From positions 122,387-186,386 of the IMG/VR virus record IMGVR_UViG_3300029288_000076: a DNA stretch of 64,000 bases. One strand, written 5' to 3'. This document shows, piece by piece, positions 13,803 to 37,910 of the stretch. The notes under the pieces were generated by a model. It was not told where the DNA came from, ran no database searches, and saw only the letters and a list, made by a program, of their open reading frames with translations. The position numbers and the translations under genes were made by a program. This stretch comes from a virus (taxonomy: Duplodnaviria; Caudoviricetes). The first letter of the stretch is position 1. Every line of letters begins with the position of its first letter.

Positions 13803-13917
13803 TGTTTGTTATTATATATTGGACATATTAGACCAAATGGCATTGGAACATATACTATATCTTCTATAGACTTTTTCCCATTACAAGTAAAGCAGACTTT
13901 TTTAGATTTTTCTTTAA

Positions 13918-14679: not shown

Positions 14680-14867
14680 TTTATATATGTTTTACCTAAC
14701 AAATAACCAACACCATTACAAAGCGGACATGGCACTGGCCAACCATGACCACCTGGTTGAAATCTTCCTAGTCCAAAGCACATATGGCATGATTCTTTAT
14801 TAATAATCTCAATTTCTACAGTAGTAAACTCTGTCTTTTTTATCTTATTATTTTCAAATTCCATCAT
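14676..14867 (-). CDS. Small DnaJ-type Zn-finger protein
   Basis: CHMCFGLG...CPLCNGVG. Confidence 0.55.
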   Translation of the reverse strand: MMEFENNKIKKTEFTTVEIEIINKESCHMCFGLGRFQPGGHGWPVPCPLCNGVGYLLGKTYIK

Positions 14868-14938
14868 AGTACCTCACAGAAAAAGAAGAACAGCATGGCA
14901 AAATCAACTTCTACCTATTATCTTATTTAAATCTTTCT

Positions 14939-17491: not shown

Positions 17492-17493
17492 TT

Positions 17494-18288
17494 TTAATTA
17501 ATCCATTTTTCTTGTTTTTTGACGCAGTCAAATTTGCACTTTTCAACCTCAGAACATATATGTATTCCTTTATTGTGACGCTGGTGAATAGCTTTAACTC
17601 CTGGATAAACAGCGTCCCACCCTTCAGTAACTCTAACTTTTCTAGTCTTTTGATCTAAAATAGCATCACACCAATGATTTTGGACTCCTGTAAAAAGCAA
17701 ATCTTTCTTCATTATTGCTCCAAGATAAAAAAGCCAGCTGTCTCTTTCTTTACCAGAAAAAAGATTCCAGCAACCAGAAATAACCTTACTATTATATTCA
17801 CTCTTCAAAGTTACAGACCAATAATAATTTTTGTAGTCATTCCAATGACAAATAATATCATTAAGATTAATTTCAAATTCTTTCCAAAAATCTGGGAAAA
17901 TTGGTGTATTTATAACGTCTGCAAAAGAGAACTTTTTATTATCTACTCCTTCACAAAGAATGTTGATTGTATTTTCATCTGCCCATATAACATCTGAACA
18001 AGTCAAGATTACAACATTAGACTTAATAGATGATAATCTAAAAGCAGCAGGAACAGCTTGAAAAACACCTAGTTTCTCTTCTGATCTTCCAAATTTATAT
18101 TCAAAATTAGTTAAAAACTTCTTAACAATAGGTTCAGCGCTTTCGTCTGAACAATCATCCCAAATACAAAACTCAACGGGAATATCTGTCTTTTGTCTGT
18201 TCATAGAATATAGTGTATTTTCTAGAGCCCATAATCTATTATGGACCGCAAAAACAACGCTTACTTTTTCAATATTTTTTGTATTCAT
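17494..18288 (-). CDS. GT2-like glycosyltransferase, paralogue 6
   Basis: AVHNR, CIWDDCS, CSDV, WCD, HQRH, C-x5-C-x3-C. Confidence 0.8.
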   Translation of the reverse strand: MNTKNIEKVSVVFAVHNRLWALENTLYSMNRQKTDIPVEFCIWDDCSDESAEPIVKKFLTNFEYKFGRSEEKLGVFQAVPAAFRLSSIKSNVVILTCSDVIWADENTINILCEGVDNKKFSFADVINTPIFPDFWKEFEINLNDIICHWNDYKNYYWSVTLKSEYNSKVISGCWNLFSGKERDSWLFYLGAIMKKDLLFTGVQNHWCDAILDQKTRKVRVTEGWDAVYPGVKAIHQRHNKGIHICSEVEKCKFDCVKKQEKWIN

Positions 18289-19229
18289 TAAATTTTAACC
18301 ATCCTATATACTCCGCCAGAGCCACAAAGCTTTCTTTCATCTTTGTATTGACACCACGGAAAACCTTGGTCATCAAAAGTTACTGCTTCTAAAAAATCTG
18401 TATGCTCTTTTTCAAGTAAGTTATATTTATCAGAAATATATTTAGAATCAAAAAAATCTTTTAGATCTAATTTGCTTGGATATCCACCTATAAAATCTAT
18501 TTTAGCTATAGACAATTTGATAAAATCTTCAGGCTTATAAGCAATTGAAACGGGACAATCCTCCCCATCTGTAGATTTTGAAAATACATAATCAGTATTA
18601 TCTAATGCACTATACTTATCAGAATTTGGATAACCGCTTTCTTTACTAGAAAGAATCCTTAAAACAAAAGCCACATAAAAATGAAAGAAAATACTGTCTC
18701 TATTATACACCATTAAATTAGCATGACAATCTTCTTTTAAATAATCATATAAATAGTTAAGTATTTCTACTGGTTTATTTACATGGTGCAAAACTCCCCC
18801 GCAGTGAACATGATCAAATTCTCCAGAAAAGTCACCAATATTAGAATTTTGATTTGTATTAAGAATTAATGCTACTTTATCTTCATAGCCATATAACTTT
18901 ACTCTTTCATTAGTAATATCTAAAGCTTTTTTAGAAACATCACAACCAACTACAAAGTCAGCGCCAGCTTTTAAGAATTCAATTACGTCATGTCCTGGAC
19001 CGCAACCATAATCAAGAATTTTCTTCCCTGCATAATCTACATTCTCAAGTTCTAGCATTTTCATAGCCATTGGATATTGAGCACTTCTCCAAGCTAAATA
19101 ATCATCCGATTCCTTTATTGACGTAAAATACTTATCATAAATAAGATGCTTATTCCAGTATTCATCAACTTGGGTCATGTGTAACCTCCAAAACCAAAAT
19201 CTCTCTTCCCGGAACAGTAAACCTATCAA
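18288..19229 (-). CDS. Class I SAM-dependent methyltransferase (start probably MTQVDEYW)
   Basis: ILDYGCGPG, GCDVS, FDHVHCGGVLHH. Confidence 0.88.
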   Translation of the reverse strand: MIGLLFREERFWFWRLHMTQVDEYWNKHLIYDKYFTSIKESDDYLAWRSAQYPMAMKMLELENVDYAGKKILDYGCGPGHDVIEFLKAGADFVVGCDVSKKALDITNERVKLYGYEDKVALILNTNQNSNIGDFSGEFDHVHCGGVLHHVNKPVEILNYLYDYLKEDCHANLMVYNRDSIFFHFYVAFVLRILSSKESGYPNSDKYSALDNTDYVFSKSTDGEDCPVSIAYKPEDFIKLSIAKIDFIGGYPSKLDLKDFFDSKYISDKYNLLEKEHTDFLEAVTFDDQGFPWCQYKDERKLCGSGGVYRMVKI

Positions 19230-19806
19230 TCTCTACCATACCAAGTCTCAAGAGCATTTTTGTCATTTTAATATTTCTTATATCCATTGATCCCCAAGTA
19301 GCAAAATAGCCTAACTTTTTATGTTCATCAATAACCATTTGAATACAAGTTTTTACCATTTCTCTTCCTTCTGGGGTCCCTTGATATTCAGGAATCATGG
19401 TTATAAAACCAAGATGAGCTCTAGGATCTCTAGCTTTCCTAGTTTTCTTATCCATAGTGTTAAAAAATAATTGCATTAAGGCATTGAGAACATAACGCAA
19501 ATGAAATACCCCGGCAAGCATGCGCTTTATCCAGATCCATGGTATTCTAAATCTATATTTTCTATTAAAACATTCATAGAGCAAAGCTTTATTAAAATAG
19601 CCAACAGCATAGCAAATTATCTTACCATGCTTTTCTGCATAAAAACCAAAAGCTAATCCTGAAGAAACAAGATAGTTATAAAATAAAGTAAGATATTCTT
19701 CGCCCAAAAGTTTAGTAAATTCATAATCATAGAATGTATCTAAATGAATTTGAACTAATTTTCTAGCAAACAAATAACTATTAAAGAATGGTCTGTAAAA
19801 AATCAC
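19165..19806 (-). CDS. GNAT-family acetyltransferase
   Basis: ITMIPEYQGTPEG motif A-like, N....LL.RLGM motif B-like. Confidence 0.6.
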   Translation of the reverse strand: MIFYRPFFNSYLFARKLVQIHLDTFYDYEFTKLLGEEYLTLFYNYLVSSGLAFGFYAEKHGKIICYAVGYFNKALLYECFNRKYRFRIPWIWIKRMLAGVFHLRYVLNALMQLFFNTMDKKTRKARDPRAHLGFITMIPEYQGTPEGREMVKTCIQMVIDEHKKLGYFATWGSMDIRNIKMTKMLLRLGMVEIDRFTVPGREILVLEVTHDPS

Positions 19807-20398
19807 TGAATGTCCTCATAAAAGTAATATAATATTCCATATGACCTACATCGTTTAAATGTACTCCATCTTGTAGTAAAAGATTTTGAACAATTTTGTT
19901 TTTAGTGAGCCAATCTTTTTCATGATCTACTAAAATTACTCTATGATTATAATTGCTTCCAGATATAAAATCCTCAACCACATTTCGTATAACACCATTA
20001 TATACATGACATTGTGGGTAGATAGTGTTTTTTATAGCTGGATGATTTGTAGCAACAAAAACAACTTTAATATCAAAATTAAAAGCTCTTTCTATAATTT
20101 CATATAGATTATACCTAAAAGAATTAAGAGAAACCCTTGATAATCCTTTATCTGTTTCCCATCTATTACAATCATTCAAGCCATATTGAACATATAAGTA
20201 ATCTGCTTTTGCTTCTTGTACGTCATGCGGCATGCGCTCAAGAGCCTGCCTTGTAGTCTCACCATTCCTTGCAGAAATCTCAATAGAATAATCTTCTTCT
20301 AATTCTTTAGCTACAAGATATATCCACTTATTTGATAATGATATATGTTGTCCATCGACAGTAGAATCTCCCCAAAATAGAAACTTCTTTTTAATCAT
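19781..20398 (-). CDS. SGNH/GDSL hydrolase (O-acetylesterase or acetyltransferase)
   Basis: GDST, GETT, GLND, DGVH blocks. Confidence 0.88.
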   Translation of the reverse strand: MIKKKFLFWGDSTVDGQHISLSNKWIYLVAKELEEDYSIEISARNGETTRQALERMPHDVQEAKADYLYVQYGLNDCNRWETDKGLSRVSLNSFRYNLYEIIERAFNFDIKVVFVATNHPAIKNTIYPQCHVYNGVIRNVVEDFISGSNYNHRVILVDHEKDWLTKNKIVQNLLLQDGVHLNDVGHMEYYITFMRTFSDFLQTIL

Positions 20399-20756
20399 TC
20401 AAACTCCTAATCCACAATTCATTTGGTATAGCATAGGCAGCATCAATAGCTAGAAATTTAATTCCTCCTGGTGGATATAATCTACACTTATCCCAAATAC
20501 CATAGTCTTTTATATTACGACATATTTGCTCAAGTATTCTATCTTGAGCTTCTTTAGAAATTTCACAATTAAACCAAAAATGTCTTACTACAAAATGAAG
20601 CTTATTGTCTAAAGAGCTTTCCCCACCACCCTCTTTATAGTATGTTACGCAAATACAAATATGACGATCTATATCGCTATCTTTTTCTTTTTGAAAATAA
20701 AAAGGTAAAGAATCTATTTCATAACCTTCAATATTCTTAAACGATTCATTAATCAT
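20391..20756 (-). CDS. Hypothetical protein
   Basis: GGAGG RBS; lies within the operon. Confidence 0.5.
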   Translation of the reverse strand: MINESFKNIEGYEIDSLPFYFQKEKDSDIDRHICICVTYYKEGGGESSLDNKLHFVVRHFWFNCEISKEAQDRILEQICRNIKDYGIWDKCRLYPPGGIKFLAIDAAYAIPNELWIRSLND

Positions 20757-20765
20757 TTAACCTCC

Positions 20766-21599
20766 TTAGATACGATTAAGTAAATTTTGTTTTTTAAAAG
20801 CAAAACATAAAACGCCTAATACATTTCCATTGTTTGGAAATAGAAAATAAGATCCTTTCTTCCAAGCATTTTTATCCCAATTTATATATCCTGGAAGTTC
20901 GTTCACATAACCATAAATCAATTCAGATCCTAAAAACATTTCTTGTATATGCCTAACATTTATATTTGTAATATTCTTAGCTCTATCACCATATCCTAAT
21001 TCCCCATTCATTAGATAATCTATAGTAAAAATAATTATACCTCCAGGAGCCACTAAGTCCCAGCATGCTTTTAAGTGTTTTTCATATTTATCAACACCAT
21101 AGCAAATTGGTATATGTTCTAAAACAGATATATTAAAAACTACATCAAAAAATTCTTTTTGTAATGGTAATTCTTCTACCAAACCGACCACCATTTTTGC
21201 TTCATAATCTTTTAATATTGACATAAAAGATGTCCATTCAGCTTCTAGATTATTTCTTAAAGCCCAAATAAGAATATCAGTAAGATGTTCATAATCAGAA
21301 GAAAAGACTTTATGGATTGTTAAATCTGTTTGCTCCATTAATAAAGCTGAAACAAAAAGCATATCAGAACCAATATCTAAAACTTTCTTTCCTTTTAATC
21401 CTCCATGAAAATTAGAAGCAATATTTAATACAGTTGGATACTCTTTCAATCTTGTAGTGCAGGAACAAAAAAATATCATTTCTTCTTTTTGATATTGTGT
21501 AAGTTCTAACCATTCTTCAAGTTTAAGTTCGTTAGACATCCAGTCAAAAGCTTTAATATAGTATCTAATATCTTCTTGAGAAGGATTCTTTAAAATCAT
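20766..21599 (-). CDS. Class I SAM-dependent methyltransferase
   Basis: VLDIGS, FDVVFNISVLEH, LVAPGG. Confidence 0.82.
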   Translation of the reverse strand: MILKNPSQEDIRYYIKAFDWMSNELKLEEWLELTQYQKEEMIFFCSCTTRLKEYPTVLNIASNFHGGLKGKKVLDIGSDMLFVSALLMEQTDLTIHKVFSSDYEHLTDILIWALRNNLEAEWTSFMSILKDYEAKMVVGLVEELPLQKEFFDVVFNISVLEHIPICYGVDKYEKHLKACWDLVAPGGIIIFTIDYLMNGELGYGDRAKNITNINVRHIQEMFLGSELIYGYVNELPGYINWDKNAWKKGSYFLFPNNGNVLGVLCFAFKKQNLLNRI

Positions 21600-22525
21600 T
21601 TCAAATTTTTAAGATGCGTATAAGTTTCTGTTACTGGATTATTTTTGTACCAATCAGTTGCCCTATCAATTCCACTTTGTAATGGTGTGAAACCTAGCAC
21701 TGGTTGTCCAAATTCTTTGATAGTTAAATCATTCTCTAAAATCAAATAAGGTATATCGTCGTCACCACGTTCTTTAAAAATAGGGTCTTTTTCTATATTC
21801 AAACTCTTGCACATCGCATTATACAAATCAACAATCTTATATGATCTTCCTGACGATACATGGTAAGCTCCATGTCCATTACTTTTAAGTATTGCCTGGA
21901 GCAAATAAAAAAGCAAATCATTTATATAAACAAAATCTCTTTCAACTCCAGTTACTACTGTGCAATCTTCTCCTTCAGTTAATCTCTTGAAAAATGTGGG
22001 CACAGGACCTGATAAATTACGTTCGCCGTAGCAGTTAGCTAATCGAAAAGAAACATAATCAATTCCAGACATTGCTATATATCTTTCAGCTGCTGTTTTT
22101 GAAATAGAATAGCTATTAGTTGGGGCTATTTTATGTACAACTGGAATTGGAACTATCTCTGGCCATCCATAGCAAAGTGATGTTTGCATATAGATAATTC
22201 TTTTCACTTTATTATTTTTAGCTGCTTTAATAATATTAACTGTCCCAAGTACATTTGTAGCACTATCGCGATACCAATCTTCAGGATCTTTATATGACGC
22301 TGCACAATGTACTACAACTTCTGGTTTAACGAGTTCAAAAAGTTCATTAACCCTGCCAATATTCTCTATTGTATCTGCAACAAAGTATTCCATTCTAGCA
22401 TCAATGTTTTTAGCTTTACCTGTTGACAAATTATCTATTCCATATACTTGATGTCCCCTATCAATAAGTTTGTTTGCTAAATGAGAACCAATAAATCCAG
22501 CAACCCCAGTTATTATGACATTCAA
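21596..22525 (-). CDS. NAD-dependent nucleotide-sugar epimerase/reductase (extended SDR), Bordetella WbmG/WbmH-like
   Basis: TGVAGFIG, AASYKDPEDW, QTSLCYG, YSISK, FRLAN, C-terminal YTHLK as recalled for WbmG/H. Confidence 0.85.
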   Translation of the reverse strand: MNVIITGVAGFIGSHLANKLIDRGHQVYGIDNLSTGKAKNIDARMEYFVADTIENIGRVNELFELVKPEVVVHCAASYKDPEDWYRDSATNVLGTVNIIKAAKNNKVKRIIYMQTSLCYGWPEIVPIPVVHKIAPTNSYSISKTAAERYIAMSGIDYVSFRLANCYGERNLSGPVPTFFKRLTEGEDCTVVTGVERDFVYINDLLFYLLQAILKSNGHGAYHVSSGRSYKIVDLYNAMCKSLNIEKDPIFKERGDDDIPYLILENDLTIKEFGQPVLGFTPLQSGIDRATDWYKNNPVTETYTHLKNLK

Positions 22526-23169
22526 TTAGTTTCCTCCCTATCTTTTTTCTTTCTAGTTTCTTTTTTATTATGATAACTAAAATGTTCTCCAACAGTCATC
22601 ATTTGCAAATTTGTCAAATCATTATTTTTACTATTCCCATCTTTATGATGAATAACGCAACCTTTTGGTATTTCTCCATAAGCTTCTCCCCAAACTAAAC
22701 GATGCATTAACCTTCTTTTATCTCCTTCATTGTAAATTGATATATAATTGCCACTATCAAGTACTTCACCTTTCCACCTTGAATTTTTCTCCCTTATAGT
22801 ACTTTCTCTCATTTTCCTCTTTGCTTCTTCGGAAAGATGTTTTCCTGTTTGGGCTTCGCTCATCCGCTTTCTAGTTTCTAAAGAGAGATTTTCTATTTTA
22901 TGACATTCACTTCTACGCTTCTTTGTCTCTTCGGAAAGATTTTCTGTTTTATTAATAAAACTTATTTGTTGCCTTGTTTCTTTAGAATGATGTTTACCTT
23001 TCATGCCAAAATTATGATTATTTTTAGCATTCCACTTAGAAACACAAGAGTGACAACAAAATAATGACTCTTTCTTCTTCTTTTTTCCACACTTATATTT
23101 ATTTAGAATTTCTTTTCCGCACTGTTTACAACACTCTTTATTGTCATCCATTCTATAACATTTCTCCAT
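22522..23169 (-). CDS. Free-standing HNH homing endonuclease with NUMOD3 repeats
   Basis: GKHHSKETR repeats; HRLVW...IHHKDGNSKNNDLTNL. Confidence 0.88.
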   Translation of the reverse strand: MEKCYRMDDNKECCKQCGKEILNKYKCGKKKKKESLFCCHSCVSKWNAKNNHNFGMKGKHHSKETRQQISFINKTENLSEETKKRRSECHKIENLSLETRKRMSEAQTGKHLSEEAKRKMRESTIREKNSRWKGEVLDSGNYISIYNEGDKRRLMHRLVWGEAYGEIPKGCVIHHKDGNSKNNDLTNLQMMTVGEHFSYHNKKETRKKKDREETN

Positions 23170-24406
23170 CTATAAAGTTTCTAAAAAATAATTCCAAGCT
23201 CAAAGCACCCAAAATTGTCCTACCATATTCTGATTCCAATGATGCTGCTATTAATATTTCATCACAATTAAAGATACCACGTTCTCGCGTTCTTTGATCA
23301 TTAAATAAATCGCTAACAAATTCATTTGCAATACCATCTCCTTGTATCCATTTCACAAAAGGAGTTGTAAAGCCCATCTTGTTTGTTCTATTTAAGACTT
23401 TCTCAGGCAAATACTTTTCTCCTGCTTTCTTAAGAATATATTTTAATTCTTGATTCTTAAATTTAATCTCAATTGGGACTTCTTTAGCAAACTCAACAAT
23501 AGCCCTACTTAGCAAAGGTGCATAAGTTTCTATACCAAAAGCTCTTGGGAGCTTTTCATCAATAGCTAATAACGTTGGTAGATCATATTGAATTTCTCCA
23601 ACCATTACTTGCTCAAGAGTTTTTGTTTCCATACAAGGATAAAATATATTCATTGGAAAACGATCTTTAGCATATATACTAGGGACTTTGCATCTAAGAA
23701 TAGAATTATTATATTGTAATAAATCCAAATATCTTGTATAACCTAACCAAAGTTCGTCTCCCCCTTCACCTGTTAGAAGTATGTCTACCCATTTCGAAGC
23801 TTCTTTGTAGACAATATATTGGCTAAAAGATCCTGGACCACCGCAAGGTTCTTCTAACCAATAAATAACGTCTTGTATATTATCTACAAAATCTTGTTCA
23901 TCAATAATTACAGGATGCAAAATAAGATTTGGATATTTATTTGTTACTGCTTTAATATAAGGCCATTCATTGTAACCTTCATAAAGAAACAATCCTGAGA
24001 AAACATTAAAGTCGCAATCAGGATTTTGAGTTGCTGCTACACCAGTTACAAAAGAACTATCTATTCCGCCAGAAAGAGAAAAGCCTATTTCATCAGCGCT
24101 TTTATAAGAAAGAGATTCTTTAATAGAGTTCTCTACAAGATACGTTAGTGTTTTTATTGCTCTATCTTCTGTAAGATTATCATAATTAAAATAGAAATTA
24201 GCTAATTGAGAAGGTCTTTCTCTAAAAATACCTTTAAATAATGTTTCAGAAGAAGTATAGTATTGATATGTAATGTACTCTTGAAGAGCTTGTTCGTTTA
24301 GCTCTATTTTAGGTTTGCCATTTTCATCTTGGGGTAAATATTTAAAAAGATCAACTATCCTATCTGAATAGTGTCTAACACCGTAACCATTAATATAGTA
24401 TTGCAA
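23153..24406 (-). CDS. Asparagine-synthetase-like amide ligase (synthetase domain only)
   Basis: SLSGGIDSS PP-loop, LTGEGGDELWLGY, KMGF; no N-terminal Cys glutaminase domain. Confidence 0.85.
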   Translation of the reverse strand: MQYYINGYGVRHYSDRIVDLFKYLPQDENGKPKIELNEQALQEYITYQYYTSSETLFKGIFRERPSQLANFYFNYDNLTEDRAIKTLTYLVENSIKESLSYKSADEIGFSLSGGIDSSFVTGVAATQNPDCDFNVFSGLFLYEGYNEWPYIKAVTNKYPNLILHPVIIDEQDFVDNIQDVIYWLEEPCGGPGSFSQYIVYKEASKWVDILLTGEGGDELWLGYTRYLDLLQYNNSILRCKVPSIYAKDRFPMNIFYPCMETKTLEQVMVGEIQYDLPTLLAIDEKLPRAFGIETYAPLLSRAIVEFAKEVPIEIKFKNQELKYILKKAGEKYLPEKVLNRTNKMGFTTPFVKWIQGDGIANEFVSDLFNDQRTRERGIFNCDEILIAASLESEYGRTILGALSLELFFRNFIDGEML

Positions 24407-25189: not shown

Positions 25190-25250
25190 GGAACTACATC
25201 CTTATAAAGTATTATAGTTTTCTTGCACAGGATCCGTAGGTTCCTGTAAG
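25190..25250 (-). ncRNA. Candidate 3' part of the TnpB omegaRNA scaffold / element right end
   Basis: Hairpins ACAGGA...TCCTGT (25227-25247) and AACTATA...TGTAGTT (25192-25219) overlapping the tnpB 3' end. Confidence 0.45.
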
Positions 25251-26281
25251 AGAAATCGATTCAAGATATTTAAAGACGCATTATAATCTGCATCGGTAGT
25301 GTAACCACAACTCTTACACTTAAATATCTCACCATTTCGATTCTCCTTGTGGACTGCTTTGCACATTGAGCATTCTTGGCTCGTGTAAGCAGGATTAACT
25401 TTGTGAACGTGGACACCACTTATTTCACATCGTTGCCTTAACCTATTTAAAAAATATGAATAAGACCACCGTTGTAACTTATTATTAAATTTCTTGGTAA
25501 ACTTACCTTTACTGTGCTTCTTTACATTTTTAAGATCCTCCACAACTAGAATTTTGATAGTTTCAAAAGGAATTTCTTTTGTTACTCTATTAATATAATT
25601 ATCTCGTTCTATTAGTTTCCTTTTAAATGCTTTAGAACCTTGTACTTTTCTTGAAATATTTTCAATTTTCTTTTCTAATTCAGTTCCTATTTGTTGTTTT
25701 GTAGAAAGAACTGCCAGCTTCTTATATCCACAATCAAGACCTATAGCTTTTCCTGTTTCTTTTAATGTAACATCTTTCTGGAAAAATAAATCTACAAAAA
25801 ATGCTCCATCAGATCTTTTTCTAAGTCTAATTGACTTTTTAAGATTCCAACTTTCAAAACTATTAAAATGCTCATGTTTTTTAGATGGGATTTTAAAGAC
25901 AAAATGATTACCAATATTCCAAAATTTTATCCATATATCAAAAGAAGTTGAAATATTAAAATTAATAGTAACAAAATTTGAATTGAGAATAATATTTTTC
26001 TTTTTAAAAACTGGTTTTATCTTCTTTTTCTTTTTTCTTTGGCTCTTGACTATTTGTAACGCTTGTTGAGCTAGAGATTGTTTCAAAGCAGGAGATAACC
26101 ATGTATCTCCAACAAGATCATAAATAGATTTATATACATAATTCCCTTCAAATACATTATTATCATAGAAAATAGAAATATACTTGTTAATAACTTTTGC
26201 TGATTCCTCTAGCAAAGAACCTAAAATTTGTAATTTGCCAGTGTTTGCTTTATTAATAGATATAGTTGATTTTCTAATCAT
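25202..26281 (-). CDS. tnpB: TnpB RNA-guided endonuclease (IS200/IS605/IS607 superfamily), solo
   Basis: RuvC-I GLDCG, RuvC-II VEDL, VNPAYTSQECSMC...FKCKSCG zinc finger, RuvC-III DADYNASLNI. Confidence 0.92.
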   Translation of the reverse strand: MIRKSTISINKANTGKLQILGSLLEESAKVINKYISIFYDNNVFEGNYVYKSIYDLVGDTWLSPALKQSLAQQALQIVKSQRKKKKKIKPVFKKKNIILNSNFVTINFNISTSFDIWIKFWNIGNHFVFKIPSKKHEHFNSFESWNLKKSIRLRKRSDGAFFVDLFFQKDVTLKETGKAIGLDCGYKKLAVLSTKQQIGTELEKKIENISRKVQGSKAFKRKLIERDNYINRVTKEIPFETIKILVVEDLKNVKKHSKGKFTKKFNNKLQRWSYSYFLNRLRQRCEISGVHVHKVNPAYTSQECSMCKAVHKENRNGEIFKCKSCGYTTDADYNASLNILNRFLLQEPTDPVQENYNTL

Positions 26282-27804: not shown

Positions 27805-28740
27805 TTAAACTAAAATATTCCTAAAATCAAACACAAACTTGTTCCAATCATTTAAAATGCTTTCAAACTCATACTCTTCTATTTTTTGTTTAAATTTATC
27901 TAAATCAATTTTTCTATTTAAGTATTGAAGCTCAAATTCTTCAAATATTAACTCTTCATATCCTAACTCTTTTACCAATTCTCCTAATTTGAAAAGCTTA
28001 TAATTTCTTTTTAAAAGATCTAGAGCATCTTCAGTAAACAGATTCTTATACTTTTTCTTTTCAATTAAATCTGTTTTTATTCGTTCATAATTATCTATAA
28101 CGTTCCCATAAGTATTTACTAAATCTGTTGCTGTTTTTGGCCCTATGCCATCGATTCCTCTAACATTATCACTCATATCACCAAGAAGTATCTTGTAATA
28201 AATAAAGTTTTCAATACTATTTATACCAGTTTTCTCAGAAAAGTTATCTACAGTAACCAGCTCGTTTTTATTTGGATTGCACCATGCCACATTTGTGTCT
28301 ACTGCTAAATAAAGATCTCTATCAGTAGAAATAATTACGACCTCTTCATTACTACTAAAGAAACTTGCCAATAGATGAATTGAGTCATCAGCCTCTATGC
28401 CTTTGATTCTTACGTTTATAATACCTATTAGGCTAAGAATGTCATATAATTCGTTTAATTGATTTAAAAATTCTAAATAAAATTCATCTGAACCTGGATT
28501 ATTCTTTCTATTTTCTGCCCTATTAGTTTTATAAGTATTTAATAGATCAAGACGATAATGCACTTTCCCAAAATCATAACACATCACAACCATTGATGGA
28601 GAAAACTTTTTGAGTACGCTTCTTAGCATATTCAAAACTCCATAAACAACGCTTACTCTCTGACCCTTAGAGTTAGATAAATCTAAAGTAGAATTGGCAC
28701 GAAATGCGAAATTATTTCCATCAATAATACAAATGGTCAT
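27805..28740 (-). CDS. 5'-3' exonuclease / flap endonuclease (Pol I N-terminal / T4 RNase H family)
   Basis: IIDGNN, YKTNR, EADD, STDRD, GDMSDNVRGIDGIGPKTA. Confidence 0.93.
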   Translation of the reverse strand: MTICIIDGNNFAFRANSTLDLSNSKGQRVSVVYGVLNMLRSVLKKFSPSMVVMCYDFGKVHYRLDLLNTYKTNRAENRKNNPGSDEFYLEFLNQLNELYDILSLIGIINVRIKGIEADDSIHLLASFFSSNEEVVIISTDRDLYLAVDTNVAWCNPNKNELVTVDNFSEKTGINSIENFIYYKILLGDMSDNVRGIDGIGPKTATDLVNTYGNVIDNYERIKTDLIEKKKYKNLFTEDALDLLKRNYKLFKLGELVKELGYEELIFEEFELQYLNRKIDLDKFKQKIEEYEFESILNDWNKFVFDFRNILV

Positions 28741-29360
28741 TCTGTTTCCTCTATTACTTTTTTGCCATGATGAATTTTATTATGCTCTCCAGGAGTTACT
28801 AGTTGCAAATTTATTAATTCGTTATTTTTTCTATTGCCATCTATATGATGAATATGGTAACCCTCTGGTATCAAACCATTAGCTTCTTCCCATATATAAC
28901 GATGCAATGATTTTCTTTTATCACCTTTAACATATATTGAAGTATATGTGCTTGTATCAATAATTTCACCCTTCCACATATAATTTTTTTCTCTCTTAAG
29001 AGATTCGCTTATTTTATGTTTTTGCTCTTCTGGCAAATGCCTACCTTTTAATGTATTACTTATTTTTTTTCTACATTCCTCAGTAATACATCTGCCCTTT
29101 AACTTAACACTTAATAGTTTTCTAGTCTCATCTGAAAATATTCTTCCCTTTAATTTATCGCTTAACTTTCGCTTATGCTCTTCTGATAAGCTCTTTCCTT
29201 TAAATCCAACATTAGGATTGTTAATAATTTGCCATTTGCTAGAACAAGAAACGCTACAAAACTTTTTACTTTCTTTACTTTTAAACTTAATTACAATTTC
29301 ATTATTACACTGTAAACAATATTTTTTTATCTTATCATTTCTATCACAATATTTTATCAT
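28737..29360 (-). CDS. Free-standing HNH homing endonuclease with NUMOD3 repeats
   Basis: SEEHKRKLS repeats; HRYIW...IHHIDGNRKNN..NL. Confidence 0.88.
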   Translation of the reverse strand: MIKYCDRNDKIKKYCLQCNNEIVIKFKSKESKKFCSVSCSSKWQIINNPNVGFKGKSLSEEHKRKLSDKLKGRIFSDETRKLLSVKLKGRCITEECRKKISNTLKGRHLPEEQKHKISESLKREKNYMWKGEIIDTSTYTSIYVKGDKRKSLHRYIWEEANGLIPEGYHIHHIDGNRKNNELINLQLVTPGEHNKIHHGKKVIEETE

Positions 29361-32914: not shown

Positions 32915-33352
32915 TTACCTTGTAACTTTCACATCATTGTTGTACTCTTCCCTCATTGAATACCCATAAGCTTTCATAGAATCTCGCTTCATAAGCAATG
33001 AATCTTTGCAAGCTCTTAGAACTTCAGCTACATAAATTGCCTCATTATATTTTTCTTTTAACTCAACTAAAGTCTCATCACCAATTACTTCTTGCCGTAT
33101 TTTAGCTTCTGTAACTTTTTTATTAGTTGTTTCATAAGATTCTCTAATAGTCATATCAAGTTTAGATTCTAAAAGCTCAATAGCTGATTTAAGTTTACTA
33201 GCCTGCCATTGAGCTTTTGCATAAAGAAATGCATACCACGAAAATGTTCCAGGAAGTTTAGTAGCTTCACCAGTAAAATCAGTTTCATCAAATTTTGCCT
33301 CATCAAGAATGTTAATTTCATATTCTTGGTTAAAGATTTTTACTTTCTCCAT
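32915..33352 (-). CDS. UvsY-like recombination mediator
   Basis: Helical 145-aa protein with KVTEAKI motif next to SSB/RecA. Confidence 0.55.
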   Translation of the reverse strand: MEKVKIFNQEYEINILDEAKFDETDFTGEATKLPGTFSWYAFLYAKAQWQASKLKSAIELLESKLDMTIRESYETTNKKVTEAKIRQEVIGDETLVELKEKYNEAIYVAEVLRACKDSLLMKRDSMKAYGYSMREEYNNDVKVTR

Positions 33353-33816
33353 TACAGATAATCCTCACTAAAAAAGTTTCTAATTTTAACTCCAGCGTTT
33401 TTGAAAATAATTAATGAATATATCGTATTATATTCACTCTCAAATACAACTTCTTTAATTCCAGCAGTTATTATAAGTTTTGCACATTCTGAACATGGCG
33501 TTTCTGGAGTATAAATAACAGATTTATGCATACCACCCAATTGTATACCAAATCTTGCGCATGTTCCTATTGCATTAACCTCTGCATGAACGCATAAAAC
33601 TGTCTCCATATTATTACCAGAAACAACTACACTTCCGCCATTACATTTATCTCGTTTACACAAAGAAGTATCTGACCCAAATGGCGGACTATTCCATCCT
33701 TCAGAAACAATTCTTCCATCAAGTGCAATTATGCATCCAACTTTTCTAGTTTTGCATGTTGACTGCTCTTTAACGCGCATCATTATATCATAAAAATACT
33801 TATCAGGATCTTTCAC
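33352..33816 (-). CDS. dCMP deaminase
   Basis: STC..RKVG, GWN, HAEVNAI, PCSEC. Confidence 0.92.
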   Translation of the reverse strand: MKDPDKYFYDIMMRVKEQSTCKTRKVGCIIALDGRIVSEGWNSPPFGSDTSLCKRDKCNGGSVVVSGNNMETVLCVHAEVNAIGTCARFGIQLGGMHKSVIYTPETPCSECAKLIITAGIKEVVFESEYNTIYSLIIFKNAGVKIRNFFSEDYL

Positions 33817-34810
33817 TTTCTGACCTCAAAAAGTGTTTGTAACAATTGCAATTTTCTAATTCGTAAATAAAATTTTCATGCGGCAAGTTAAACTTCTTGC
33901 ATAAGAGAACTAAAGTTAACTGCTTCCAATACATTGAAATATTACAATTCATTATTTCATCTATAAAATAGCTAGCATTAATAGATGCGTCTGCACTTCT
34001 TATCAACCTTTCTAATCTGCATATAATATTCAAATCACAATCTTCACTATAAATATCGCTATTTACAAATTCCATTTTTGGCATTGAAAAATATTGTTTG
34101 TTTTTTTCATCTACAATATTGTGCCCTTTTTCATAGAATTTATCATAAATATGAAATGAATTACAGATGTGTGTATATGCACCAACTTCAACATTTAATA
34201 AAATTGCTAAAATCTCTTGAAACATTGTAAAACTAAATGCATCATAAGGAGTTCCCCAAATAACATCTTGGGACCGCATATGTGTAATCATATGCAATTT
34301 ATTTTCTCTTACAAAAAACTGCAAGTCTAAAGTACATACTTGATCTTTGGTATGCTTAAGAGAATCTTGTGGAGTCTTTATATGAATAATAGCATGCCTT
34401 GTATAAAGATCTTCTTCAAATTTCTTTATAACAAAATCAAGCTGATCAAATCCTATATCCTTATTTGCGCCAAAAATTCTATTTCCATAAGCAGAATTAA
34501 GAGTTAAGCCATCGTCACTAAAATTATCAAAATTCTTAGAATAATATTTCATTGTGGCTAAATCATCTCTTCCACTCCAATACCATAAAAACTCACCTAT
34601 AGCGAATGGCAAACTAATCTTGCGCTTTTTAGAAAAAATAAGTCTATTTCTAATATTTGTTAAGCAAAATCCACTAGCTAAAATTTCGGTGTTCTCAAGA
34701 CATCTACATTTTACTTTGCTACCAAAAGCAAATATTGCGTCTATCATATCTTGATAAATATAATCCATATTGGTAGCACTATTAAAGTAAGTCATTATAA
34801 CATCTCCCAC
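33803..34810 (-). CDS. Thymidylate-synthase homologue, dCMP hydroxymethylase-like (Asp-type)
   Basis: KDQVCT catalytic Cys; RSQDVIWGTPYD has Asp where dUMP enzymes have Asn; NSFHIY. Confidence 0.8.
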   Translation of the reverse strand: MGDVIMTYFNSATNMDYIYQDMIDAIFAFGSKVKCRCLENTEILASGFCLTNIRNRLIFSKKRKISLPFAIGEFLWYWSGRDDLATMKYYSKNFDNFSDDGLTLNSAYGNRIFGANKDIGFDQLDFVIKKFEEDLYTRHAIIHIKTPQDSLKHTKDQVCTLDLQFFVRENKLHMITHMRSQDVIWGTPYDAFSFTMFQEILAILLNVEVGAYTHICNSFHIYDKFYEKGHNIVDEKNKQYFSMPKMEFVNSDIYSEDCDLNIICRLERLIRSADASINASYFIDEIMNCNISMYWKQLTLVLLCKKFNLPHENFIYELENCNCYKHFLRSESERS

Positions 34811-35874
34811 TTTCTATATTCAAAAATATTATTTAGAATATCATCAACAGCATCTTTTGCAATTCTTTTATTCATACTAATAAATTCTTCAAGCAACTCG
34901 CCGTAGATATTTGTATCATAAATTTCTCGCATTTTTTTTGCCATCTCGAAACCATCTTGAACAAGCATGTATTTAGGAAAATATTTATCTGCATTAAGAA
35001 TGTTACTATCACAAAAACAAAGTATGTTTGCGCTTACGCACTCAAAAGTTCTGATTGTCATTAAGCCAACTACTTCATATATATTCCTTGCTATTTGAAA
35101 AGAAAACATAGAGTCTGATAGCTTTTTAATAACATTTATAGGAGATATTTTACCTTTGAATTGCACATTAGCTTCATTCATAAGATTGTTAGAAAATTCT
35201 TTTGTTTCTTCCCTTAACCAATTACCATAAATCTTCATTGATCTTAGGTCGGCTGGGTACGGATTAGCAAAAGTATAAAGCATTCTTCTTCTTCCATATT
35301 CATTACCTACATACACACAATCTTCATACTCAGCTGCTCTTTTCTTCTCAATTAAACTTTTATTTGTAAAAGTAAAATAAGGCCAAAAAATAGAATTTTT
35401 AAAAAAAGCATCTTCACTATGCGGCCTTAATACAATTGCATTTGAAAGCACATTTTTTGGATAGTTTTTTACCCAAAAATCAGTATCAATAATAAATGGA
35501 AGCACGCTTTTTTTATCAATAAATTTTTTAAGAAGATCAATTAGCACAAAATAATCACTATCAAATTGCTCAGCGTATATCTTTCTATAAAACCCCATAG
35601 CAGGCCTAGATTCTGCAATTAACAAATCATAATTATTAACATTAATATTGCTACATTCAACATATGCTATTTTATTTATTATGTTCGCAAAATTATTATC
35701 TATATATTTTTTAGTTTCTTCATCCGCATTGTCTTCTAAAAGCCTTCCAGTAAAGGTTATATTATTATTTCTTGATAAAAGGTTCTCAAACAATTCTAGT
35801 CTAAGAGTTATTGAACCATCAACACTAATATTTTTAGCGTCATATCTTCCAACACCATACCACAATATATTCAT
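34795..35874 (-). CDS. T4 beta-glucosyltransferase-like GT-B DNA glycosyltransferase
   Basis: FKGKISPINVIKKLS and MTIRTFECVSANILCFCD resemble T4 BGT FTGKIPMNMVSEKNS and ITLRVWETMASDAVMLID (recalled); adjacent to the TS homologue. Confidence 0.65.
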   Translation of the reverse strand: MNILWYGVGRYDAKNISVDGSITLRLELFENLLSRNNNITFTGRLLEDNADEETKKYIDNNFANIINKIAYVECSNINVNNYDLLIAESRPAMGFYRKIYAEQFDSDYFVLIDLLKKFIDKKSVLPFIIDTDFWVKNYPKNVLSNAIVLRPHSEDAFFKNSIFWPYFTFTNKSLIEKKRAAEYEDCVYVGNEYGRRRMLYTFANPYPADLRSMKIYGNWLREETKEFSNNLMNEANVQFKGKISPINVIKKLSDSMFSFQIARNIYEVVGLMTIRTFECVSANILCFCDSNILNADKYFPKYMLVQDGFEMAKKMREIYDTNIYGELLEEFISMNKRIAKDAVDDILNNIFEYRKWEML

Positions 35875-36434
35875 TATTTCTCCTCTTCGAGAATAGACAT
35901 AATGTCTAAATAAACAATATCTGCATTTGCGTTCGCGCCATTATATGTTGTGTCATATTTAATAAATTTAAAAGGAGATTCTGACAAAAACTTCTCATAT
36001 TCAAATATAAAAGCTTTAATTTTATCAAAACTATAATTGCTATCAATTCCTTTTTTATCACTTTGTATTCTTTGCAAAATAGTTATTGGATTAGCACAAA
36101 ACAATAAAAAGACAACGCTATCTGCGATAAATTTATAATACTGTTCATAAACTTTATTCTTATCTAAATCCAAATTTATTTTTGGATAAACTATATCAGA
36201 AAGAAACGACCTGTCAAAAAATATAGGATTTCCTTTAGACAGTCCATTTATAAACGGAATAAGTTTTAACATTAATAAATTTTCGCCAGTTATTAGTGAA
36301 GTAAAATCAGAGTCAAATTCATTTTTAGAAGGTCTTGTTGGGTGATAATAAAAAGCCTTTGGATACCTTTCCATTACTTTCTTTAAAATAGAAGTCTTGC
36401 CTGTCTTATCAAACCCTTCAAATATAAAAATCAT
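35874..36434 (-). CDS. dNMP (thymidylate-kinase-like) kinase
   Basis: FEGFDKTGKTS P-loop, FDRS. Confidence 0.82.
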   Translation of the reverse strand: MIFIFEGFDKTGKTSILKKVMERYPKAFYYHPTRPSKNEFDSDFTSLITGENLLMLKLIPFINGLSKGNPIFFDRSFLSDIVYPKINLDLDKNKVYEQYYKFIADSVVFLLFCANPITILQRIQSDKKGIDSNYSFDKIKAFIFEYEKFLSESPFKFIKYDTTYNGANANADIVYLDIMSILEEEK

Positions 36435-36437
36435 AAT

Positions 36438-37145
36438 TTATCCGCAAAAATTGTCATATAAAGACTTTATCCTAATCGCCTCATCATAATAATATTCAAA
36501 TTGTTCTTCTTTAGTGATTCTCTTATATTTAAAATACGCTGGATGTTTTATCTTGAAAAGGCTAAGATTTTCATGCCCGCTTGCTGCAAGGAAATTTTTT
36601 ACTTTATCTCCTATAGCAATAAAGACCTTACCATTAGTATTATTAAAATTTAAATAATCAAGTTGATCTCTTGTCCAATATTCAAAACAATTATTGAACG
36701 CTTCATCGGTATAATTATTTTTTTCAAAAGGACATTTTGCAACATTAATGAAATTCCAATTATTATCTTTACCATAAAATATATTAGAAAAAATATTTGT
36801 AACCATTCCTATTTCTGTTGATAAAATCACTTTTTCATAAGAAGAAACCATTGCATCAAAATCATTATTTAAAAAAGCCTCTATCATTTCTTTATCATAT
36901 TGAGACGTTTTCGTATTTTTATTTAGGTTCGATTTCCAATCCCCAGGATTGATACCTATAAATGTTATAAAATTTTTATCTCTTATTATGCCATATTGCG
37001 GCGGCATAATCCACCCATTTATTTGCGAGCACTTACTACAAGATAAAAATTTTTGCTTGTCTATATTACTCAGAATCATTATTTCTAATTCTCTTTTTAT
37101 ACTTACTATTTTTTCTTTTCTTATTATGAAAAGCAACATGCTCAC
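36438..37145 (-). CDS. Uracil-DNA glycosylase superfamily protein, family-4-like (start probably MILSNID)
   Basis: CSKC, IGINPG, NVAKCP, C..YW, AIG, KHPAY. Confidence 0.7.
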   Translation of the reverse strand: MSMLLFIIRKEKIVSIKRELEIMILSNIDKQKFLSCSKCSQINGWIMPPQYGIIRDKNFITFIGINPGDWKSNLNKNTKTSQYDKEMIEAFLNNDFDAMVSSYEKVILSTEIGMVTNIFSNIFYGKDNNWNFINVAKCPFEKNNYTDEAFNNCFEYWTRDQLDYLNFNNTNGKVFIAIGDKVKNFLAASGHENLSLFKIKHPAYFKYKRITKEEQFEYYYDEAIRIKSLYDNFCG

Positions 37146-37530
37146 TTTGAGTCATTATTTGCAAATTTGATAAATCATTATTAAATCCATCACCATTTAC
37201 ATGGTGGATAATATACCCTTCTTGAATTAATCCATAAGCTTCTTCACATACAAAACGATGCATTTGTTGCCTTTTCCCATTACCTATACCTATTAAAAAA
37301 TGAGAACCGCTTTTTGATATACCGTTATTCCAGTTTGGATTCTTATTGCCAGTTAATGCATCACCTATTTGTTTTTTAGATTTTTCTGAATGATTTTTTC
37401 CATTAAAACCAAAATTTGGATTATTAATATTATGCCATTTATTAATACATGCTCTGCTACAAAATATTCTTTTTCCAGCATTTTCTTTAACTATGATTTC
37501 TTTATTACATTGCTTACAATATATTATCAT
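37066..37530 (-). CDS. Free-standing HNH homing endonuclease
   Basis: CKQC..FCSRAC, GKNHSE, HRFV...IHHVNGDGFNN..NL. Confidence 0.85.
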   Translation of the reverse strand: MIIYCKQCNKEIIVKENAGKRIFCSRACINKWHNINNPNFGFNGKNHSEKSKKQIGDALTGNKNPNWNNGISKSGSHFLIGIGNGKRQQMHRFVCEEAYGLIQEGYIIHHVNGDGFNNDLSNLQIMTQSEHVAFHNKKRKNSKYKKRIRNNDSE

Positions 37531-37910
37531 TTAAATCCTTGTCTATTCTCACTTTCCAGTCTATCCCTAACAACGCTTGATTTTAATGAAAATTCTTTCC
37601 AAAATTCTTCTTCATCTTTACAGCATAAATTTATTATATTTAATAAAAACTTTAGAACGTCGACGCATTCTTCTCTTAAATGATCAAAATCAATTTCTTT
37701 TTCTGGCTCATGCAATTTGTACCCAATAAGATCTAGGACTTCAACTGCCTCTTCAATTATATTGGTCGCATACCGCTTTATTTCTTCTTTTACTTCATTA
37801 TTTGTAAGCAAATTATAATCTTCATTTTTAATTTTTTTAAAAATAGTTTCACAAAAATCTTGCTGTTCTTCCATTGCTTCTTTAAAATTTTTAACATCAA
37901 CTTTTTTCAA
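37527..37910 (-). CDS. All-alpha NTP pyrophosphatase (dCTPase/dUTPase, MazG-like)
   Basis: EEAVEVLD...EECVDVLKF. Confidence 0.78.
   Translation of the reverse strand: MKKVDVKNFKEAMEEQQDFCETIFKKIKNEDYNLLTNNEVKEEIKRYATNIIEEAVEVLDLIGYKLHEPEKEIDFDHLREECVDVLKFLLNIINLCCKDEEEFWKEFSLKSSVVRDRLESENRQGFK

Follow-up and report, generated by a model that had tools for sequence, protein, structure and literature searches.

T-even phage T4 carries glucosyl-5hmC, for which it encodes the gp56 dCTPase, the gp42 hydroxymethylase, the gp1 kinase, the cd deaminase and the glycosyltransferase (GT) BGT, its hydroxymethylase and b-gt genes lying just downstream of the polymerase gene. Bacillus phage G groups the same functions near its DnaE gene (gp313 alpha-GT, gp315 kinase-UDG, gp317 deaminase, gp319 ThyA homologue, gp329 DnaE) and has two copies of an AGT-like (alpha) transferase (PMC6024577, PMC13216743); in the literature we found no report on the base composition of its DNA. 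The metagenomic 5hmC cassettes of the MetaGPA study, which include 5-carbamoyloxymethylcytosine phages, hold an Asp-type ThyA homologue, a MazG-clan pyrophosphatase and a dCMP deaminase on phage contigs; genes of these three kinds are found together specifically on metagenomic contigs with modified cytosine (PMC8670742). In the arabinosyl-5-hydroxycytosine clusters of RB69, DLP3 and RL38JI, a ThyA homologue with N177D, a thymidylate-kinase-like kinase and GT-B transferases are found near the polymerase, and the enzymes carry D169N and hydroxylate C5 with flavin (PMC13326640). Replication-coupled phage UDGs occur as fusions with SP-15-like PolA or are encoded by a gene in trans (PMC13697223).

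Here we analysed a window of 64,000 nt (positions 122,387-186,386 of IMG/VR record IMGVR_UViG_3300029288_000076, Caudoviricetes) from the 186-kb genome of an uncultured low-GC phage. Taking all the results together, a gene cassette in this window probably specifies T-even-type replacement of cytosine by 5hmC followed by sugar attachment, within an operon that also encodes a DnaB/DnaG/DnaE replisome.

The gene block downstream of dnaE

The cassette (33352-37910) lies entirely on the minus strand and directly downstream of dnaE, which is itself preceded by genes for a DnaG primase, a DnaB helicase and a DnaC-like loader. After dnaE come, in this order, the NTP pyrophosphatase, an HNH endonuclease, the UDG-like protein, the kinase, the GT-B enzyme, the ThyA homologue and the dCMP deaminase (Table 1). 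Neighbouring genes abut or overlap by 1-14 nt, resembling a single operon. Most of the domain matches lie far outside what chance would give; the exceptions are the pyrophosphatase and the UDG-like protein, both of which were confirmed through their relatives. A preliminary description of this DNA, made from its letters, had listed these genes correctly and in the right order and had overlooked the HNH_3/NUMOD3 gene between the pyrophosphatase and UDG-like genes. Genes of the same type occur at two further places in the window and none was seen in the relatives' cassettes; the HNH gene is probably a mobile insertion and not a step of the pathway.

Table 1. Genes of the cassette and related features (positions in the window unless stated)
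Feature	Position	Strand	Evidence
DnaE-type (family C) replicative DNA polymerase, 885 aa	37914..40571	-	PHP, DNA_pol3_alpha, DNA_pol3_finger, HHH_6, E 6e-76; phrog_405 E 3.5e-261
MazG/dimeric-dUTPase/T4 gp56-type all-alpha dNTP pyrophosphatase, 127 aa	37527..37910	-	dUTPase_2 E 1.1e-3, MazG E 3.6e-3, PHROG dUTPase E 1.7e-5
HNH_3 + NUMOD3 endonuclease, 154 aa	37066..37530	-	HNH_3 E 8e-12, NUMOD3 E 1.5e-4
Family-4-like UDG-superfamily protein, four Cys	36438..37079	-	Pfam UDG E 1e-4 (below cut-off); Atlas 0.95 to UDG clusters
Thymidylate-kinase-like dNMP kinase, 186 aa	35874..36434	-	Thymidylate_kin E 4e-8, above cut-off; phrog_761
GT-B glycosyltransferase, distant T4 BGT homologue, 359 aa	34795..35874	-	Family profile, predicted structure
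ThyA-family pyrimidine hydroxymethylase (predicted), 330 aa	33803..34795	-	PF00303 E 2e-29
dCMP deaminase, 154 aa	33352..33816	-	dCMP_cyt_deam_1 E 1e-19; phrog_174 E 3e-31; HAE + PCxxC motifs
Other HNH_3/NUMOD3 genes	28737-29360; 22522-23169		
Glycan gene island, 15 kb	9683-24406		
ThyX gene	genome C1:109340-109873, outside the window		

Although the pyrophosphatase falls below the Pfam cut-offs (dUTPase_2 19.7 bits against 22.9, MazG 18 against 22), its metal-binding motifs EExxE and EExxD are visible, T4 gp56 belongs to the same Pfam family (BLASTP between the two, E 0.002), and homologues adjoin the same GT family in contigs L021 (a dUTPase_2 protein, E 4e-7) and L020. We read it as a putative dCTPase that may also be a dUTPase. 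The kinase exceeds the Thymidylate_kin cut-off (33.5 bits against 27) and shows the P-loop GFDKTGKTS, but scores 27 against a cut-off of 83 for the NCBIfam dTMP kinase equivalog and is therefore no orthodox Tmk. It is homologous to RB69 gp45 and to the kinase half of a ThyA-kinase fusion in the metagenomic contig L007, and in Agathobaculum phage AB434P2 and Lactobacillus phage ATCCB a homologous kinase gene adjoins that of the ThyA homologue. We read it as a putative 5hm-dCMP kinase.

The family profile of the UDG-like protein matches the family-4 UDGs 4zbx, 1vk2 and 1ui0 with E-values between 1e-12 and 3e-7, and the alignment brings the CxxC, KCP and xxC positions into register; the Cys pattern is common to the homologue in contig L011; the four Cys probably form an Fe-S site. 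Because the CxxC is conserved, we prefer a start at 37079 to that of the database gene call (37007). Motif A reads GINPG, which we take to be the motif of the MUG/TDG family, and not GE(A/G)PG as in family 4 (relatives have VRPG or QNPG), and motif B is KHPAY (HPA), its His being invariant in the family profile. As in the replication-coupled phage UDGs (PMC13697223), a UDG-superfamily gene stands beside the replicative polymerase of a phage predicted to modify a pyrimidine; here, however, it is encoded in trans, beside DnaE, in a phage that would modify cytosine and not thymine, and the GINPG motif sits on a family-4-like four-Cys scaffold.

The BGT-like glycosyltransferase and the glycan island

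When a profile of 68 sequences of the GT family was compared with the PDB, T4 BGT (family GT63) was retrieved with E 3e-16 over its C-terminal, nucleotide-binding domain only, and the next natural protein with E 0.0068; hhalign against T4 BGT gave 97.5%, and the window protein is approximately 15% identical to BGT. The resemblance to BGT that had been proposed for this gene was borne out by its predicted structure (pLDDT 88.6), for which BGT entries took ranks 1-5 in Foldseek and ranks 1-4 in VIA (Z 23.3, rmsd 4.0, 307 aligned residues, full length). R275 and E278 align with the UDP-binding R269 and E272 of BGT; all family members have R275, and nearly all have E278. The nearly invariant Asp132, a candidate equivalent of the catalytic base Asp100 of BGT, lies like it in a TD motif after a beta-strand. 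The gene is present in a single copy in the genome, and the family counts 87 representatives at 50% identity. The window enzyme is a candidate DNA 5hmC glycosyltransferase.

In five other contigs (L008, L009, L010, L020 and L021), a member of this family and a ThyA homologue lie no more than about 3.5 kb apart, and four of these five ThyA homologues are Asp-type. The family is not cytosine-specific, since L021 combines it with a hydroxymethylase of the Asn (uracil) type and with a 5-hmdU DNA kinase. The GT and UDG genes are adjacent in L009 and L011.

The window also contains a large glycan island, 11 kb downstream of the cassette and transcribed in the same direction, with genes for a UDP-GlcNAc 2-epimerase, six GT-A paralogues, two SAM methyltransferases, a GDSL/SGNH enzyme, an NAD epimerase/dehydratase and an asparagine-synthase-like amidotransferase. 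The BGT-like enzyme might only prime a glycan on 5hmC which the island would then extend and decorate. Some slight support comes from L008 and L009, where the hydroxymethylase cassette itself includes GT-A genes, a methyltransferase and a homologous epimerase, and from RB69, DLP3 and RL38JI, whose DNA is known to have cytosines that bear oligosaccharides (PMC13326640). We regard such a role of the island as rather unlikely; if it were true, the phage DNA would carry a previously undescribed type of oligosaccharide, methylated or acylated.

Alternatively, the phage makes 5hmC (or 5mC) while the GT-B enzyme acts on a target outside the DNA, such as a protein, a wall polymer or a small molecule, leaving the 5hmC of the DNA bare or otherwise decorated. 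The presence of this large separate island would fit such a reading, as would two observations on the GT: generic GT-B enzymes score only approximately 2 Z units below BGT in VIA (Z about 21 vs 23), and PF09198 (T4-Gluco-transf, the N-terminal DNA-binding domain of BGT) had no match at E <= 0.01 in the window protein or in any of the 68 family members, T4 BGT itself giving 9e-98. Against this stand the sequence-profile similarity, which is specific to BGT, the location of the family inside a hydroxymethylase cassette in every informative contig, and the overlap of the GT gene with each flanking gene by one base, as in a translationally coupled operon. We consequently consider a target other than DNA improbable.

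Substrate and product of the ThyA homologue

The ThyA homologue is the sole ThyA-family gene of the genome, scores far below the NCBIfam thymidylate synthase cut-offs and has the CMP hydroxymethylase MilA as its best PDB match (E 1.6e-29). The strings on which the preliminary description had relied are present (KDQVCT, RSQD, PYD), and the catalytic Cys154 (E. coli C146) is invariant across the alignments. Its signature D151/C154/D177/D185 corresponds to E. coli L143D/C146/D169/N177D and is identical to that of T4 gp42. The Asp announced for the specificity position is thus confirmed as Asp185 in the N177 column, where T4 gp42 and MilA also have Asp and where phi3T and B. subtilis ThyA, and the dUMP hydroxymethylases of SPO1, ViI-like and M6-like phages, have Asn. 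In the L143 column Asp151 replaces the Leu of phi3T ThyA, and in the D169 column Asp177 is kept, in contrast to the RSQN of RB69 gp48. The control enzymes with known product are sorted correctly by these three columns (L143/D169/N177: phi3T ThyA L/D/N; T4 gp42 D/D/D; RB69 gp48 E/N/D; SPO1, ViI-like and M6-like D/D/N).

An acidic residue at L143 admits water and so leads to a hydroxymethyl instead of a methyl group, and Asn at D169 marks the 5-hydroxy-dCMP synthases, all tested ones carrying it (PMC13326640), a recent rule that was drawn from a limited set of tested enzymes. Three products had been offered at first, 5-hydroxymethyl-, 5-methyl- and 5-hydroxy-dCMP. The replacement of L143 by Asp disfavours the second and the retention of Asp169 the third, and the diagnostic residues favour the first, so that we infer a dCMP hydroxymethylase (5hm-dCMP synthase).

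The third product deserves closer attention, because 5-hydroxy-dCMP synthases likewise have Asp at N177 and an acidic L143 and adjoin thymidylate-kinase-like kinases, to which the kinship of the window kinase with gp45 may be added, and GT-B transferases. The ThyA homologue would then be a flavin-dependent enzyme of the RB69/DLP3 type, and the GT would link a sugar directly to 5-hydroxycytosine by an ether bond. Apart from the Asp in place of the Asn of every tested synthase, the only specific relative of the GT is BGT, a 5hmC enzyme, and this assignment appears quite improbable to us.

Were dUMP the substrate, as in SPO1 or ViI-like phages, glycosylated 5-hydroxymethyluracil would replace thymine. 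The top named phage matches do include the dUMP hydroxymethylases of SPO1, SP10 and ViI-like phages, the dCMP deaminase would feed dUMP, and L021 has the GT family together with an enzyme of the Asn type as well as a 5-hmdU DNA kinase. However, the specificity residue is Asp and not Asn, and in the maximum-likelihood tree the window enzyme falls outside the well-supported hmU clade (98/94) and is not sister to gp42, the deep nodes being poorly supported. The genome encodes ThyX, so that dTMP and thymine are made normally, and no HMUDK was found, in a search that had no positive control. Modification of uracil is, in our view, very unlikely. An XP12-type dCMP methyltransferase giving 5-methylcytosine, which Asp at N177 would suit as it suits any dCMP-using ThyA homologue, is hardly credible, since L143 is Asp as in all aligned hydroxymethylases (a set without an XP12-type reference) and not a bulky water-excluding hydrophobic residue, and since a methyl group offers the adjacent GT no acceptor.

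A pathway for glycosylated 5hmC and its relatives

In the pathway that we favour, which leads through 5-hydroxymethyl-dCMP and would have steps both before and after replication, the MazG/gp56-type pyrophosphatase would hydrolyse dCTP, and perhaps dUTP, to the monophosphate, depleting dCTP and feeding dCMP to the ThyA homologue, which would convert it with methylene-tetrahydrofolate into 5-hydroxymethyl-dCMP. The kinase would yield the diphosphate and the host NDP kinase 5hm-dCTP, which DnaE would use instead of dCTP. The BGT-like enzyme would flip 5hmC out of duplex DNA and attach a sugar taken from a UDP-sugar of the host, probably by an inverting mechanism in which Asp132 would serve as the base; the linkage would therefore be beta. 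The dCMP deaminase, supplying dUMP to the phage ThyX, would maintain the supply of dTTP, and the Fe-S UDG-like enzyme may rid replicating phage DNA of uracil or of deaminated 5hmC. The outcome would be DNA resistant to host restriction. The T4-like logic proposed earlier (destroy dCTP, modify dCMP, phosphorylate, incorporate, glycosylate) holds up well in view of the gp42-type residues, the BGT match and the gp56-family pyrophosphatase.

This logic, and the superfamilies of the pyrophosphatase (dUTPase_2 clan), hydroxymethylase, deaminase and GT, are shared with T4, as is the location just downstream of the polymerase gene. The phage differs from T4 in its replisome (DnaE/DnaB/DnaG vs gp43/41/61), in its thymidylate-kinase-like and not gp1-like kinase, in making dTMP via ThyX and not Td, in a highly diverged GT without a recognisable PF09198, in the UDG-family gene that belongs to the block and in a ThyA homologue that is extended at its C-terminus and that a tree with poorly supported deep nodes does not place with gp42. 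Among cultured phages, that homologue has its nearest relative in phage G (32% identity, Asp-type), the UDG-family domain of which shares the HPAY motif; there the transferases are AGT-like and the kinase and UDG are fused, whereas here the transferase is BGT-like and the two genes are separate and adjacent. This fusion in gp315, and that of ThyA and kinase in L007, tie the parts of the cassette together. The closest ThyA relatives (L007, L008) adjoin carbamoyltransferases. Unlike the MetaGPA 5-carbamoyloxymethylcytosine phages, this genome has no carbamoyltransferase, and the group-transfer enzyme is the BGT-like GT; unlike in the RB69, DLP3 and RL38JI clusters, no arabinose synthesis genes were seen. 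The highlighted coupling to a polymerase of family C is real in this phage but is not special: cassettes of this type also accompany PolB and PolA, the related cassettes having polymerases of family A or B.

Judged from its genes, the phage is very probably a new example of a known anti-restriction strategy, similar cassettes having already been published. Complete base replacement with glycosylation is among the strongest phage defences against restriction enzymes and CRISPR, and it makes genomes hard to sequence and clone. The diverged BGT-like family is a possible source of new 5hmC-labelling enzymes, and its conserved UDG partner with a MUG/TDG-type motif is of interest for its substrate. 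These results are further evidence that T4-like phages are not alone in using the T4 strategy: the toolkit of hydroxymethylase, kinase, pyrophosphatase, GT and UDG also occurs in large low-GC phages whose DnaE replisome is of bacterial type, and it moves among phages whose polymerases belong to families A, B and C.

Setting and gene content of the cassette

The phage genome record measures 186,386 bp, its completeness being estimated at about 90%; the window covers its bases 122387-186386, and the G+C content is 27-33% across most of that stretch. Scans against Pfam and PHROG placed the cassette within a long minus-strand replication operon, in which the genes for a DnaC/IstB-like loader, DnaB helicase, DnaG primase and DnaE lie upstream in transcription order, and those for a UvsY-like protein, a gp32-like SSB, RecA, a UvsW-like helicase, an HNH endonuclease and a 5'-3' exonuclease follow in that order. 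The six cassette genes named in the preliminary description were all recovered by ORF listing and by these scans, in the same order and at the same coordinates, as were the motif strings KDQVCT, RSQD and PYD of the ThyA homologue, but that gene list had omitted an HNH_3/NUMOD3 gene. Adjacent genes either abut or share 1-14 nt of sequence. The sole blastn match of the region to phages was 111 bp of Bacillus phage G.

Features of the cassette, of the surrounding genome (window positions, or C1 for the whole genome record) and of relatives
Feature	Coordinates	Strand	Evidence or context
Small all-alpha NTP pyrophosphatase	37527-37910	-	ORF listing, Pfam/PHROG
HNH_3/NUMOD3 endonuclease gene	37066-37530	-	Between pyrophosphatase and UDG-like genes
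UDG-like protein	36438-37079	-	ORF listing, Pfam/PHROG
Thymidylate-kinase-like kinase	35874-36434	-	ORF listing, Pfam/PHROG
Glycosyltransferase (GT)	34795-35874	-	ORF listing, Pfam/PHROG
ThyA-family protein	33803-34795	-	ORF listing, Pfam/PHROG
dCMP deaminase	33352-33816	-	HAE and PCxxC motifs
HNH_3 + NUMOD3 gene	28737-29360		
TnpB/Cas12f-like gene	25202-26281		Cas12f1-like_TNB, E 2e-20; between glycan island and replication genes
HNH_3 + NUMOD3 gene	22522-23169		
Glycan-biosynthesis island, ~15 kb	9683-24406	-	UDP-GlcNAc 2-epimerase, E 6e-69
ThyX gene	C1:109340-109873		
Phage G gp315	L004:3444-4439		N-terminal nucleotide kinase, C-terminal UDG-superfamily domain (PF03167, E 1.5e-12)
Agathobaculum phage AB434P2 enzyme	L005:3838-4500		Annotated 'deoxyuridylate hydroxymethyltransferase'; Asp at the N177 position (PYD)
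Metagenomic protein P0003, 472 aa	L007:10001-11419		Asp-type ThyA homologue fused to thymidylate-kinase-like domain
Serine hydroxymethyltransferase and ThyA homologue	L010:11200-13405		Former directly upstream of Asp-type ThyA homologue in PolB phage
BGT-like GT and neighbours	L021:948-4688		With Asn-type (uracil) hydroxymethylase, 5-hmdU DNA kinase domain protein and dUTPase_2 protein near PolA

The HNH gene of the cassette is read as a mobile insertion because genes with the same domains occur elsewhere in the window, each of the three sitting between operon genes for replication, modification or glycan synthesis; they look like a homing endonuclease family spreading inside the genome. As a step of the pathway this gene was dropped, since same-domain genes are scattered in unrelated operons and none was seen in the cassettes of relatives.

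The glycosyltransferase and its resemblance to T4 beta-glucosyltransferase

The GT gave no significant pairwise BLASTP match to T4 beta-glucosyltransferase (BGT) or to the phage G alpha-GT, phmmer against the PDB and tblastn against 50,697 phage records gave no match, and a word-index protein search gave one weak match. The family, with 87 representatives, was obtained solely by exhaustive HMMER search. A profile of 68 of these matched T4 BGT with E 3e-16, no other natural protein falling below E 0.0068, and the hhalign probability between family and BGT was 97.5%. The profile match spans the C-terminal, nucleotide-binding domain, where Arg269 and Glu272 of BGT correspond to Arg275 (invariant across the family) and Glu278 (nearly invariant) of the window GT. 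A single-sequence AlphaFold model was discarded (pLDDT 29.7); the model built with the family alignment reached pLDDT 88.6 and pTM 0.88, and its VIA-align comparison with BGT gave Z 23.3 for 307 residues over the entire chain, generic GT-B enzymes scoring about 2 Z units lower. The resemblance to BGT proposed in the preliminary description was borne out by Foldseek, whose top five hits were BGT entries, with two caveats: the N-terminal Pfam domain of BGT (PF09198) was not detected in the window GT or its family, and the counterpart of the catalytic Asp100 is only plausible, being Asp132, a nearly invariant residue in the same strand-TD context.

At the sensitivity used, and in a record about 90% complete, we found in the genome no sugar nucleotidyltransferase, second BGT-like GT, carbamoyltransferase or trimeric dUTPase, and no AGT or HMUDK, the searches for these last two having no positive control. 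With no sugar nucleotidyltransferase in the genome, the sugar donor is likely a host UDP-sugar. Five other contigs were of sufficient length to assess the gene neighbourhood, and in every one of them a member of the GT family is no more than about 3.5 kb from a ThyA homologue. Set beside this neighbourhood and the likeness to BGT, an acceptor other than DNA seems improbable for the enzyme. The glycan island of the same window also encodes six GT-A paralogues, two SAM methyltransferases, a GDSL/SGNH enzyme, an NAD epimerase/dehydratase, an HNH gene and an asparagine-synthase-like protein, and its epimerase/dehydratase has a homologue (E 2e-22) that adjoins the ThyA homologue of contig L008. That the island builds a decorated oligosaccharide onto the DNA-linked sugar is a tentative idea, and on balance an unlikely one.

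The ThyA homologue and its predicted product

The ThyA homologue scored 75 bits, far under the NCBI thymidylate synthase cut-off of 327, and its best solved relative is the CMP 5-hydroxymethylase MilA (E 1.6e-29; B. subtilis ThyA, E 1.5e-15). Alignment to B. subtilis ThyA by HMMER places Asp at the positions of E. coli L143, D169 and N177. According to a 2026 diagnostic rule, N177D marks a dCMP substrate, L143D/E a non-methyl product and D169N the flavin-dependent 5-hydroxy-dCMP synthases (PMC13326640). We checked this rule on enzymes of known product from public records in one common alignment, and all sorted correctly: phi3T ThyA is L/D/N, T4 gp42 D/D/D, RB69 gp48 E/N/D, and SPO1 gp29, one ViI-like enzyme and one M6-like enzyme are all D/D/N. 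The window enzyme is D/D/D, identical to gp42, which upholds the dCMP-type Asp of the preliminary description and narrows the three products offered there to a predicted 5-hydroxymethyl-dCMP, the other two being disfavoured. 5-Hydroxycytosine, whose synthases carry D169N, is thus very improbable for an enzyme with Asp at this position.

A uracil pathway is less probable still: the substrate residue is of the dCMP type, and in the maximum-likelihood tree the enzyme falls outside the dUMP hydroxymethylase clade (support 98/94). The tree did not make the enzyme sister to gp42, and support did not settle the other deep nodes, among them its placement within the Asp-type enzymes. 5-Methylcytosine, with Asp at the L143 position, can be given next to no weight. 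The genome holds no ThyA-family gene besides this homologue but does have a ThyX gene, so dTMP would be made by ThyX from deaminase-supplied dUMP and thymine would not be replaced; this gene content agrees with a 5-hydroxymethyl-dCMP product. Its closest relatives come from metagenomes (39-45% identity) and from phage G (gp319, 32%); a related-locus search with the homologue among viral contigs found no relative.

The proposed pathway and its relatives

Homologues of the window kinase are RB69 gp45, the C-terminal part (one half) of the ThyA-kinase fusion of the metagenomic relative L007, and kinase genes adjoining the ThyA homologues of AB434P2 and Lactobacillus phage ATCCB; these relationships tie it to the modified nucleotide. 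The pyrophosphatase shares its Pfam family with the T4 dCTPase/dUTPase gp56 (aligned at E 0.002) and has homologues in the L020 and L021 cassettes; by analogy, its substrate would be dCTP, with or without dUTP. Single-sequence PDB searches with this protein and with the UDG-like protein gave only noise. The latter has a weak Pfam match and an atlas score of 0.95 to UDG clusters, no match in the word-index search, and was missed by a six-frame PF03167 search of the genome, showing its high divergence. A profile of four such proteins (the window protein, those of contigs L009 and L011, and phage G gp315) matched family-4 UDGs (E 1e-12) with the four Fe-S cysteines aligned. Motif A of the window protein reads GINPG, not GEAPG, the former being the MUG/TDG motif. 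A UDG-family gene directly follows the GT in contigs L009 and L011. Phage G gp315, publicly annotated only as thymidylate kinase, carries QNPG and KHPAY in its UDG domain. Phage UDGs fused to or encoded beside polymerases act in replication-coupled uracil removal (PMC13697223), the best-supported role for the window protein; an attractive further idea is that it might prefer 5hmU, which arises from 5hmC by deamination.

Experimental work has associated Asp-type ThyA homologues, together with MazG-clan pyrophosphatases and deaminases, with metaviromes whose cytosine is modified (PMC8670742), and the phage G GT genes are already in the literature (PMC6024577, PMC13216743). Analogous cassettes occur in cultured Enterococcus phage Planchet and in ATCCB, which like the window phage has an Asp-type ThyA, with a 359-aa 'beta-glucosyltransferase' (hhalign 95.5% to the window GT family) and also a UDP-galactopyranose mutase. 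Taken together, the cassette probably specifies T4-type cytosine hydroxymethylation and DNA glycosylation, with the T-even-like logic proposed in the preliminary description. The pyrophosphatase would convert dCTP to dCMP, the ThyA homologue would hydroxymethylate it, and the product would be phosphorylated up to the triphosphate and built into DNA by DnaE; glycosylation, probably with a beta linkage, would follow replication, the deaminase and ThyX would keep up dTTP, and the UDG would guard against uracil.

With a carbamoyltransferase and DnaE on its two sides, the L007 fusion probably belongs to a 5-carbamoyloxymethylcytosine phage. The Asp of the AB434P2 enzyme makes a dCMP hydroxymethylase more likely, its annotation being probably wrong. 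The L010 phage may supply its own methylene-tetrahydrofolate, and the L021 genes suggest 5hmU DNA that is glycosylated and/or phosphorylated. Among the contigs with both GT and ThyA homologue, L008 also has a carbamoyltransferase, a methyltransferase, three GT-A genes and sugar-nucleotide enzymes, L009 and L010 have PolB, and L021 has PolA; L020 is the remaining one. DnaE accompanies Asp-type enzymes in the window phage, phage G, L007 and AB434P2. The coupling to DnaE is thus present but not special to a family C polymerase, and because PolB and PolA also occur it would reflect lineage history rather than mechanism. The ThyA homologues near the GT family are Asp-type in four of five cases, that of L021 being Asn-type with a 5-hmdU DNA kinase; these two kinds of partner suggest that the GT family serves hydroxymethyl-pyrimidine DNA in general, paired in the window with a cytosine-type enzyme.
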